From contig OX597821.1 of assembly GCA_951406725.2 (NCBI GenBank), forward strand, positions 70,122,001 through 70,186,000: a stretch of 64,000 bases of DNA. The letters run 5' to 3'. This stretch comes from Octopus vulgaris. Its lineage: Eukaryota. Below, piece by piece: positions 3,480-59,258 of this stretch. The notes below the pieces were generated by a model, which searched no databases, was not told the origin of the DNA, and saw only the letters and a list, made by a program, of their open reading frames with translations. A program made the translations under genes and the position numbers. Every line of letters starts with the position of its first letter. Within the stretch, counting starts at the first letter, position 1.

Positions 3480-4720
3480 TAAATAGAATCCCTCGTAGCG
3501 GAGCCGGCCGTCCATCTTGGGTAATTCGGGAAAAAACTTTATACAATATGTCTCGGATTGCTCTGCCCCCTCCAAAACATGGGAAGTGCCACTTTGCTTT
3601 TTCTCTCTTCCTCCTTAAAAGCTGCTTACACAGAGTCCATTCAGCCTCACCAGTCTTGCCATTCCCGTCCACCTTTTGATAAACACTCTAGAAGTTAGCG
3701 CTACCTTCTCCTATCCTCGCTTTCCTGTTCAAAAGAAATTTGAAGATAGTGAGAGCTTGGCCGGATAGGAAAGATCCTGTGCTCAAATCTTTGAGATGGG
3801 TCCACAACACAACCTCTTTTGTCACAGCCACTAAGCAGAGAAAAATCTGCTTCCCTTCTCTGCTAAAGGAAGCTGGTGCGTCGATCAACACGGAATGCTT
3901 GGTGGACAGCCGAACTCGTCTTAAACGAGACAACAGCTGCTCAACACAATCCCACAAATCACTAATGTGCGGACACTGAACGATTGCGAGCGCGACGGTT
4001 TAGTCATCTTTCAATGCATCCGGGGAAGTTAGTTGGCGCTTCCATACCTAAAGAGCTTGTCTCGGACCGGTAATTCCCCCCTGTAGCCCCCTGCTATGCC
4101 AAAGAGTTTTGGAAATTGTCCATAGTATTCAAGGTGAAATCCTCAAAAGAATCCACTCATACTGTCATTATACCCTCAACTAATCCACCCTATAGAAATC
4201 GTGAGTTATTTTCCTGCTAATGGCTTTGTTCCGTTGGTACAATGCTGTGAGCGTCTGGCAACATTCGAGTGGATAAAGACCAAAATCCTATTCTTTGTTT
4301 GACCCCGGACTACAGCTTGGTCACGGAAACGAGCTGCAGAAAGACGGGTCGTACGAAAGGCACCGACACCAATACACCCTCGTTTTCATCACCGTCCTTG
4401 ACACCTTTGCGGTGATTTAGATATTTCTGCAACTATGTCAATCTCAATGTGCGCTGGTGCATCATCAAGGACGGCATCCTGAGTACACCACAGAGTGGGT
4501 GTTGACTTCAGGTGGTTTTCCTTAAGAATCGGAAAAGCAAGCCCTCCAATCTGGTCAGAGTTTTCTTGCGAAAAGACACGACTGTTAGGCGTTAGTACAC
4601 CACCGAAGCGATGCACGCATTCGCTACTTCTGCCCGCTTTTCAGACGCAGTTTCATCTCACTATTTCTGTTTGCGATTGGCGATCCTGCTCGTGACCTCT
4701 TCCCAGTTCCTATCTGGAGA
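3480..4720 (-). mobile_element. Tx1/L1-clade LINE 3' relic (ORF2 C-terminus)
   Basis: Degenerate minus-strand coding: ..KRAEVANA.IASVVY.RL.., a Cys/His zinc-binding remnant, and ORF 3688-3957 (WDCVEQLLSR...FLCLVAVTKEVVLWT). Confidence 0.55.
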
Positions 4721-4734
4721 TCTGGTCCGAAATA

Positions 4735-5305
4735 ATAATTCTTTCTACTAAAGGCACAAGGCCTGACATTTTGAGGGAGTGGACTAGTCGATAAGAGCAA
4801 CCCCTGTGTTTCATAGGTACTTATTGTATCGACTCCGAAAGGATGAAAGGCAAAGTCGAACTCTGCAGAATGTGAACTCAGAACGTAAAGACAGACGAAA
4901 TGCCGCTAAGCCTTTGACCTAGCATGCTAACGATTCTGCCAACTCACCGACTCCTGGTCCAAAATAATAATATTGGTTTCACATTTGGCAGAAGGCTACC
5001 AATTTCGGAGGAGGTTTCAGTCGATCACGTTAACCCCAGTGCTTTACTGGTATTCATTTCATCGACCCCGTAGGCATGGAAAGCAAAGTCGGATTCGACA
5101 GAATTTGAACTCAGAACATAAAGACAGACAAGATACCACAAAACAATTTTCCCGACGCAGTAACCACTGTACCAGCTCACCGCTTTCAAAAGAATAAAAA
5201 ACTAAGTCAACCCCGGTGGCATTTGAACGCAGAAAATAAAGTCTGATGAAATGCCGCAAAGCATTTTGCCTGGTGCAGTAACGATTCTGTCAGTTCGGTA
5301 CTTTA
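4735..5305 (-). mobile_element. Cluster of three tRNA-derived SINE copies (family A)
   Basis: Repeated GAAAGGATGAAAGGCAAAGTCGA..GAA(T)TTGAACTCAGAAC..GCTAACGATTCTGCCA; the reverse complement gives a tRNA-like head with a GAGTTCAAATTC B-box; AAT-type ends. Confidence 0.8.
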
Positions 5306-23152: not shown

Positions 23153-23822
23153 CTCGTAATATCCTTTCGGGGTAAAACTATGGTTAATCAGTTACGCACT
23201 GGGGTCGATGTAATCGACTTAATCCGTTTGTCTGTCCTTGTTTGTCCCCTCTGCGTTTAGGCCCCTTGTGGGTTGTAAAGAAATCTGTATCATTATCATA
23301 AACGCAGGAAGGATAGTTCGGGTTCAGTCCTACTGCTCGGCCTTTTTTATCGAACGGCTAAGCACCGATTGTCAAGCATGCCTTGACTGGAAACAAAACA
23401 AAGGCATGCATACATGTATGTGCGTGTGTGTATGATGGGTCATGGGTCGGCCCAGAACTTTAGTGGAAGACACTTGTTCAAAGTGCCGCGCAGTAGGACT
23501 GAACCCGAACTATCCTTCCTGCGCTTATGATAATCATACCTTGACTGTCTATGTCTAATATTTGTAGTTTACTAGCAACTCTACCTGTCTGCGATGGAGG
23601 CATAAAATGAGGGAGGGAAGTCATAACAGAAGTCTGCTTTGAGAAATGATAAGCAATAAAAAATTGTAAAAATGCAGAATGCTCGATTGAAAGAAAATTT
23701 TAATGAATTGAGAAAATGAAAAAATATATAAATATATATTTATATATTTTTTCATTTTCTCAATTCATTAAAATTTTCTTTCAATCGAGCATTCTGCATT
23801 TTTACAATTTTTTATTGCTTAT
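22905..23822. repeat. Nested inverted repeats; one AT-rich hairpin present twice
   Basis: Hairpin TGCAGAATGCTCGATTGAAAG...CTTTCAATCGAGCATTCTGCA at ~22907-23032 and ~23641-23822; a further inverted pair at ~23290-23337 / ~23490-23535. Confidence 0.85.
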
Positions 23823-23834
23823 ATATATATTCTT

Positions 23835-24402
23835 TTATTCTTTTATTTGTTTCAGTCATTTGACTGCAGCCATGCTGGAGCACTGCCTTTTGTCGAACAA
23901 ATCGATCCCAGGACTTATCTTTTGTAAGTCTAGTACTTATTCTATCGGTTCTTTTGCCGAACCACTAAAATGGTTGGGAGGACAAACACAGACACACAAA
24001 CATTACCCCTCTGCAAAGGAATTTTATTTAATTCTTTCGCAGGAAGGATTAGTTCGACGAGACGTGTTCTGTCCTCACCTTCGAAACACGCTGGAGTTGA
24101 ACTAAGGACGGCTGATGAAGGGGATTTTTCCTTGTGTAGTTGTCTTGTACTCTGTTTTTTCGTTGTTAAAGGAATGGTCCGTTTTTACGTTTTCGTTTCA
24201 TTGAGTTCTACGTCTATTTGTGGTGTCCTGTACATACGTATATATATTTATATATGCATGTATATATACATGTAGGTACGCACATATATGTTTGTATGTA
24301 TGCATATATTTTATTTATTACACTATTGTATGACTGAGCGCCTTCGCGTCGATTCGATTCGATTCGTTTGGTTTCGTTTCGTTTCTTCTTCTTCTCTAGG
24401 CT

Positions 24403-24474
<72 letters not shown>

Positions 24475-24859: not shown

Positions 24860-24905
24860 AACACAACGTTTCGGCTGATATACTTTCCACCCTTCATCAG
24901 GTGTC
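24860..24905 (-). ncRNA. Minimal type I hammerhead motif
   Basis: gacac-CTGATGA-a-gggtg...cagcc-GAAAC-GTT-gtgtt. Confidence 0.7.
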
Positions 24906-39096: not shown

Positions 39097-39131
39097 ATTT
39101 AACGTTTCGAGCGGAGCTCTTCATCAGAAAC
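39097..39131 (-). ncRNA. Minimal type I hammerhead motif
   Basis: gttt-CTGATGA-a-gagc-tcc-gctc-GAAAC-GTT-aaat; sister copy 60534-60568 (+) has a decayed core. Confidence 0.8.
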
Positions 39132-58189: not shown

Positions 58190-58353
58190 GTTCTTGTTTG
58201 TCTCCTGTCCAAGCTTGATTTACGCGTTCGTCACCACAACCTCGTTTAGGTTTAGCAGCCCTTACTGTTTCTTTTCACTGTCCTATTTGTGTTACCAATT
58301 TTGACCCTCCACAAATTCCTCAATTTTAAAAAAAATTTTACTTTGCGGGAGAA

Positions 58354-58433
58354 ACTGTTTTATCGAAAGCGTATATTGTTGTAAAATGCTCGAAATACGA
58401 GACTAGAAAAACAGTCAACAACTGATGAAGGGT
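58354..58433 (+). ncRNA. Non-circularly permuted (pseudoknotted) hammerhead candidate, family J2
   Basis: actgtttt-atcgaaag-CGTAT-A-ttgttg-taaaat-gctc-GAAATACG-agactaga-aaaacagt-caacaa-CTGATGA-a-gggt. Confidence 0.78.
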
Positions 58434-58554
58434 CGTTCTTTATGTTGTTTGTCTTGTTTTCCATTTGTGTCTTTCGTTGTTCGAAAGACTAGTTCATATT
58501 CTATGTACTCGTACTTCGTATTTTTTGTTGTACACGTTTCGTGACGTCCTGTGT

Positions 58555-58829: not shown

Positions 58830-59258
58830 AACAGGTACTTGGAGAGAAGAACGGAACGAAACGAACGAATCGAATCGAATCGACGCGAGGGCGCTGTCAT
58901 ACAATAGTGTAATAAATAAAATATATGCATACATACATACATATATGTACGTACCTACATCTACATGTATGTATACATGCATATATAAATATATATACGT
59001 GAGTACAGGACACCACAAATAGACGTAGAACTCAACGATTAAAGAAAACGGAAAAACAAGCATGGAACAAACCATTTTTTTACAATAGAAAAAGAGAGTA
59101 CAAGACAAACTACACAAGGAAAAATCCCATTCATCAGCTGTCCCTAGTTCAACTCTAGCGTGTTTCGAACACGACTCGTCAAACTAGCCCTTCCTGCGAG
59201 AGAATTAAATAAAATTACTTCGCCGAGGGGTAAAAACATACGTACGCCTTTCTGTTTG

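Follow-up and report, generated by a model that had tools for sequence, protein, structure and literature searches.

A predicted split-core hammerhead motif in Penelope-like repeats of the Octopus vulgaris genome

The DNA analysed here, referred to as the window, is a stretch of 64,000 nucleotides from contig OX597821.1 of the Octopus vulgaris assembly GCA_951406725.2 (positions 70,122,001 to 70,186,000, forward strand). Positions 24003–24406 of the window hold a 5'-truncated copy of a non-coding repeat, designated family A, and the whole motif described below occupies positions 24006–24123. A second motif of the same kind lies further downstream. The features are as follows.

24003–24406, plus strand: family A copy, a 5'-truncated, non-coding 784-bp repeat unit; its 3' end abuts (TA)n
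24006–24010, plus strand: 5' strand of helix P0, CCCCT; partner at 24119–24123; 92.6% paired
24011–24042, plus strand: hairpin between P0 and stem II, with zero linking bases
24043–24047, plus strand: 5' strand of stem II, GAAGG, from the upstream leader; G24043 is G10.1
24049–24058, plus strand: 5' strand of the clamp (stem I–II interaction helix); partner at 24096–24105
24063–24068, plus strand: block S, with the 3' strand of stem III (CGTGT) and H17 (U24068), from the core alignment
24069–24074, plus strand: 5' strand of stem I, CTGTCC; covariation in 5 of 6 pairs
24075–24077, plus strand: linker TCA, 3 nt, from stem I to stem II, read from the sequence
24078–24090, plus strand: block G, with the 3' strand of stem II (CCTTC), G12-A13-A14-A15.1 (24083–24086) and the 5' strand of stem III (ACACG)
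24096–24105, plus strand: 3' strand of the clamp, from covariation
24106–24118, plus strand: 3' strand of stem I (GGACGG) and core C3–A9 (CTGATGA), from letters and covariation
24119–24123, plus strand: 3' strand of P0, AGGGG, immediately 3' of A9; not stem II
24407–24472, no strand: (TA)33 microsatellite, probably the target of the insertion; the same ending is seen in other family A copies
58303–58434, plus strand: family J, second split-core motif in the window, with different stems and an AUA triplet

The original prediction described this motif as a hammerhead core whose strands follow an order that no circular permutation yields. Re-reading of the window confirmed all letters and coordinates given for it, namely CGTGT (24063–67), T24068, CTGTCC (24069–74), GAAA (24083–86), CACG (24087–90), GGACGG (24106–11), CTGATGA (24112–18), and the clamp (24049–58/24096–105). 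The full core and the order S-G-C were borne out as well. The cut predicted 3' of U24068, that is, between 24068 and 24069 (GUU), agrees with the placement of this base as H17, and the short linker postulated between stems I and II is seen as the 3-nt TCA. The extent of the motif was underestimated, its true start lying 43 nt further 5', and the large family of Penelope-like repeats that contains it had been overlooked. Every helix closes in the window copy: P0, the hairpin, stem II (24043–47/24078–82), the clamp, stem III (24063–67/24086–90), and stem I (24069–74/24106–11). All helices and core bases are thus intact in this copy, and they are also kept in 32 of 74 distinct ungapped family A sequences.

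The hairpin at 24011–24042 has the base CTGC/GCAG and an upper stem formed by 24016–23 and 24030–37; it is also present in the minimum free energy fold. The minimum free energy fold of 24040–24135 is ordinary (z −0.30), as expected for a pseudoknot. Standard models had been anticipated to miss the motif, and Rfam indeed gave zero matches within the window at gathering scores. The loop between the clamp and stem III contains a tandem G-A in family A and, in family C, a pattern that we take to be kink-turn-like; both were read by eye and do not occur in all families.

Several other elements were observed in the window. A canonical type I core, whose stem II has 2 bp and whose stem III loop is tiny, is located on the minus strand at about 24860–24905, 800 bp from the motif. 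Minimal CUGAnGA..GAAA cores in canonical order occur at 39127 (minus), 20236 (minus), 40071 (minus), and 40317 (plus), the last two as an inverted pair. Positions ~23650–23820 are covered by a nearly perfect inverted repeat, whose arms measure about 85 bp and flank a TA tract. One more copy, of family A/B, lies on the minus strand at ~58830–59240 and has lost 13 nt from the predicted cut onwards. Strands of stems I and II are removed by this deletion, for which a 3-nt microhomology could be an alternative cause.

The 784-bp unit has no coding frame of note. A search of the genome (2.8 Gb, 227 contigs) revealed 345 exact copies of a 22-mer from the motif against 0 of its reversed form, and 489 matches to a 31-mer. 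The genome-wide descriptor search that the original prediction had proposed gave 2,610 matches to a loose S-G-C core pattern, a few of them double-counted, against 39 in the reversed control. A second, complementary S-G-C pattern gave 1,670 matches against 203. Families with different stems were labelled A, A2–4, B, C, D, E, F, G, and H, and family J was seen in the window. For the latter, the cut is predicted after 58375, and a 27-mer has 137 exact matches in the genome. Single matches at C1:144476623, C1:119416379, and C1:101491580 resemble further families with their own stem I. The scrambled order with a U3:A8 core was also searched for and rejected, showing no enrichment (71 matches versus 304 reversed). 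Two pattern matches were found in viral contigs, neither showing flanking stems when inspected by eye. The motif region of family A is also present in three other organisms, so that the family is not confined to one species.

Among the repeat copies, the 3' end is at either of two fixed positions, each at (TA)n, and the 5' end varies. Head-to-tail partial tandems and head-to-head inversions at the 5' end are present, and some copies extend further 5'. Family A copies are mostly shorter than 1.5 units. The 5' truncation, partial tandems, inverted 5' copies, and (TA)n targets are traits of Penelope elements and Naiads. Family F provided a check of the proposed structure: from truncated copies, the S block, stem I strand, and clamp that they lacked were predicted in writing before longer copies were seen. 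Those copies that reach that far match the prediction (CGCG-UC, TTGTCC, and CTGTTTTA), some with point changes. Families C and G have the same split-core wiring, as found by anchored complement search. Family G has the motif within the 3' UTR of a non-LTR element, some 105 nt before the element's 3' end. The ORF of this element ends in what is presumably a restriction-like endonuclease motif, for which Pfam gave zero matches. Family G copies (L274–L303) also carry a second GAAA near the end, so that a type I core could form as well if they were tandem or circular.

All letters of the hammerhead core were found: C3-U4-G5-A6-N7-G8-A9, G12-A13-A14-A15.1, U16.1, and H17. In the aligned rows of the different families, H17 is U, C, or A, but never G; the catalytic letters and the NUH rule are constant while the stems vary. 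Alignment A3 was made with structure-blind MAFFT from 19 chosen rows; families C and G misaligned and were left out, and their wiring was examined by the anchored search instead. Covariation in the stems, on which the original prediction had been made to depend, was detected. Stems I and III are 94.7% paired over the 19 rows, with 28 both-sided cells versus 8.7 after shuffling, 0 of 500 shuffles as good, and 51.5% in the best slid control; the rows share ancestry and are not independent events, so that here and below the shuffle control overstates significance and shuffle counts are not probabilities. Both-sided changes occur in 8 of the 11 pairs of these stems. They also occur in 9 of the 10 pairs of the clamp (15 rows). 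The clamp was correctly placed by the original prediction, while the role assigned to it was not correct: the helix is the equivalent of a stem I–II interaction helix, not an extension of stem III.

The remaining helices are those that split the core. The five bases preceding GAAA find a Watson-Crick partner 35–43 nt upstream in all families. Stem II built with this leader strand exists in five Watson-Crick versions (GAAGG/CCTTC, GAACG/CGTTC, GAGCA/TGCTC, GACAC/GTGTC, and GGCCC/GGGCC), and its closing pair G10.1–C11.1 is G-C in 18 of 19 rows. For the bases that follow CUGAnGA, the pairing partner lies further upstream than the stem II strand, and the hairpin fills the gap. P0 shows a change from C-G to A-U in family J and from U-A to G-C in family E. 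In the latter, A24119 is replaced by C together with the replacement of U24010 by G; this A, which had been regarded as a spare base after A9, is therefore part of the first P0 pair. At the second pair of the hairpin base, U-A and C-G are each found in 9 rows. Taken together, leader stem II, P0, and the hairpin are paired in 93.6% of 266 cells, with 27 both-sided cells versus 7.5 shuffled, 0 of 500 shuffles as good, and slid controls of at most 55.6%. In the anchored search, the automatic choice of P0 was off-target in several rows of families C, F, J, and G, and P0 was read by eye.

Because CCUUC pairs with the upstream GAAGG and AGGGG pairs with the upstream CCCCU, the link between A9 and G10.1 is predicted to be open, giving a four-way junction. 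A hammerhead has a continuous backbone from A9 to 10.1, with at most 1–2 extra nucleotides; in the fold predicted here this backbone is interrupted. Covariation and sequence comparison identify the core letters, stems I and III, leader stem II, P0, the hairpin, and the clamp as elements of the predicted fold, and we have high confidence in the split-core structure as described. The wiring so predicted lies outside the six described hammerhead permutations.

The 5' ends of the repeat copies were examined relative to the predicted cut. The family A sample comprised the first 90 of the 489 anchor matches in genome order, with the anchor located 3' of the core. In 23 of these 90 copies, the 5' end falls within −5 to +19 of the predicted cut (in L174 the end was moved by eye, from −19 to −2). 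The rate of 5' ends is 0.011–0.012 per nt at the cut, 0.0029 just 3' of it, and 0.0008–0.0022 upstream. None of 5000 constant-hazard simulations reached this pile-up in any 25-nt window, a window that was picked post hoc with two widths tried, the scan statistic allowing for position. The predicted cut site is read through in 62 of the 90 copies. In family F, 9 of 20 ends are at 0 to +11, two of them exactly at 0, and none at −1 to −11. No pile-up was seen in family J (2 of 30 ends at the site), for which its AUA triplet may, post hoc, be the cause. Among 18 copies with a non-G at −3, 8 have junctions that fit position 0, three of these 8 being inversion starts, and one copy has an insertion at the site. 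Many family A junctions are at +6 to +11 and not at 0; TA microhomology may draw them there. Hammerhead cleavage by the motif RNA is considered likely.

A different reading of these ends is that the fold exists but has little or no cleavage activity, serving as a binding or priming signal for a retroelement protein, with reverse transcriptase stalling in the knot. The 62 of 90 copies that cross the site would agree with this, as would the lack of a pile-up in family J and the position of the family G motif, where a cut would separate the ORF from the 3' end. Against it, all catalytic letters and the NUH rule are preserved while the stems change. Moreover, an enzyme moving from 3' to 5' would meet the helices at +54 to +9 and would already have copied the partners of positions 0 to +8; the ends nonetheless cluster at 0 to +8 and drop sharply just upstream. 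We consider this reading unlikely.

The choice of stem II strand raises another alternative. The original prediction built stem II from CTTC and GGGG, and our own first reading was likewise a plain type SGC ribozyme, with a tail helix at 24041–48/24125–32. Such an ordinary type SGC would have stem II CUUC/GGGG and one extra A after A9, and the upstream pairings would be an off state or incidental. The pairs G-C, G-U, G-U, and G-C can be formed in family A, these 4 pairs were 90% paired on 15 rows, and canonical cores of the same genome also have short stems II. Our first reading seemed supported on those 15 rows when scored together with the clamp. With CUUC/GGGG and the tail helix scored jointly, it fell to shuffle level on 19 rows, once family J was added (75.3% paired, 195 of 500 shuffles as good), and was rejected. 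Both-sided changes are absent in the CUUC/GGGG stem, and families C, F, and G form just 1–2 pairs beside the core, against the 5 Watson-Crick pairs in five versions offered by the leader. An ordinary type SGC is very improbable on this evidence. It is more improbable still that the pairings form between two RNAs or two tandem units, the dimeric mode reported for minimal Penelope hammerheads: covariation is blind to cis versus trans, partial tandems are frequent, and hammerheads of animal retrozymes are reported to cleave as dimers in the covered part of PMC7229834, but P0, the hairpin, the clamp, and stem III make up a nested stable fold in a single molecule, no tiny stem III loop forces dimerisation, and SGC ribozymes with a similar linker cleave co-transcriptionally according to the covered sections of PMC10085705.

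The split-core fold is thus the reading that we prefer. The intact copy in the window is likely to be a self-cleaving S-G-C hammerhead in a non-coding Penelope-like repeat, with the strand predicted to be open between A9 and G10.1 and a four-way junction. Two cuts in a transcript longer than one unit would release a free unit-length RNA, which may then circularise. The reverse transcriptase/endonuclease of a Naiad, or of another Penelope-type element, would likely prime at nicked (TA)n, with the UAUAUA tract inside the unit as the priming partner. With cut linear RNA as the template, copies would end at or just past the cut, and with circles or uncut multimers they would cross it. The element 3' end is 357 nt past the predicted cut and the unit joint has a TATATA tract, so that copies crossing the cut must have been made from a circle or from a multimer that had stayed uncut.

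No ORF with GIY-YIG and reverse transcriptase domains was found in the unit or attached to the family A copies examined, and family A is non-autonomous at best. The search for an autonomous partner by GIY-YIG gave 148 matches; 20 loci were read, one of them with the motif. A young full-length Penelope-type element was seen at L272 (G000:C16:20834500–20841000), with a 781-aa ORF for reverse transcriptase plus GIY-YIG, an upstream 359-aa frame, and 456-bp direct repeats that are 99% alike. Its hammerhead-like core has U3:A8 and type I order, and many 781-aa copies exist in the genome. This family was rejected as the autonomous partner since its core is of type I instead. At L271:4950–6650, a 1.3-unit split-core copy is joined head-to-head and without a gap to a truncated ORF of the canonical Penelope type. 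This fusion may be a template switch by one enzyme, and the identity of the fused fragment means that another helper is possible. At L112, the minus strand near 4470–5200 of the reversed locus contains an uninterrupted 243-aa frame with an NPA motif, which is presumably aquaporin-like and possibly a processed copy.

The link to Naiads comes from family C, which matches, almost letter for letter as compared by eye, the last ~190 nt of the Naiad_Ovul consensus in the covered part of the supplement to PMC8557442. The preceding record (Naiad_Obim by file order) also ends in family C. Short core searches of that supplement found the motif in these two octopus records only, and this gives no extension to other Naiads. 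Of 12 family C loci fetched from the genome, 8 contained the motif, and none of these had a Naiad ORF upstream, which is in line with the description of cephalopod Naiads as remnants in the sections of PMC8557442 covered. Families A and C have common wiring and short motifs, from which we infer their homology. We somewhat favour a Naiad as the helper mobilising family A.

We find it reasonably probable that the motif is an active hammerhead, opened after A9 with a four-way junction, and is the ribozyme that had been considered missing from octopus Naiads; that it has spread to many non-coding derivatives and also to an unrelated non-LTR element, in the 3' UTR; and that the 5' ends of the genomic copies preserve its cut as a fossil. 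If true, this would mean that a broken backbone and two additional helices are tolerated in the hammerhead core at a supposedly unbreakable place, and current descriptors would therefore miss a whole class. The half cores described for Naiads would also be accounted for, and the clustering of copy ends at the predicted cut would be a testable handle on the role of Penelope-element hammerheads.

Among Penelope-like elements, Naiads resemble the octopus repeats in that they target (TA)n, are truncated at the 5' end, and occur as partial tandems and as copies inverted at the 5' end, and the Naiad_Ovul consensus ends in family C; unlike them, family A has no ORF. In the covered part of their description, no canonical hammerhead is reported for Naiads, and Naiad_Ovul is marked with (TA)n and HHR_half_core (Craig et al., 2021, PMC8557442). 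The non-LTR retrozymes of animals are similarly non-coding, hammerhead-bearing, and arranged in head-to-tail units, and were proposed to be non-autonomous Penelope derivatives copied from circles (PMC7229834; bioRxiv 10.64898/2026.07.22.740005). They differ in having type I hammerheads, units of ~200–400 bp, and up to long arrays, as opposed to the split core and 784-bp unit in octopus. The covered sections of these two texts use type I models only and make no mention of octopus. Natural core variants were described with small insertions of 1–2 nt being tolerated (Perreault et al., 2011, PMC3088659); a stem IV, an additional or extra stem, or a four-way junction is absent from the part of that article covered. 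Neither a split-core hammerhead nor a scrambled hammerhead in an animal genome was found in the literature searched, which included few subscription journals.

The closest known relatives are the type SGC ribozymes, HRIMA-1 and its variants (Eckert et al., 2023, PMC10085705). The original prediction had left novelty to a literature check, and the S-G-C order, the ~3-nt linker, and an extra I–II helix are already published there. In the sections covered, type SGC has a linker of ~3 nt, a helix that spans stems I and II on their other sides, and cleavage rates of 0.007–0.19 per min; its RNAs are almost only metatranscriptomic, with none from genomes of known organisms. The octopus motif shares the order S, G, CUGAnGA, the 3-nt linker, the helix across stems I and II, and the full core. 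Its clamp joins the far sides of these stems and suggests an SGC-like mode of working, yet the uninterrupted block C that defines the type is missing from the predicted wiring. The scheme of six permutations takes CUGAnGA and the stem strands on either side of it to be a single continuous block (PMC10085705, sections covered); in the octopus fold, S is preceded by the stem II strand, and A9 is followed directly by an extra helix. The octopus motif also differs from type SGC in being present as thousands of chromosomal copies in an animal and, if our reading is true, would move non-circular permutations from anonymous metatranscriptome RNAs to animal chromosomes.
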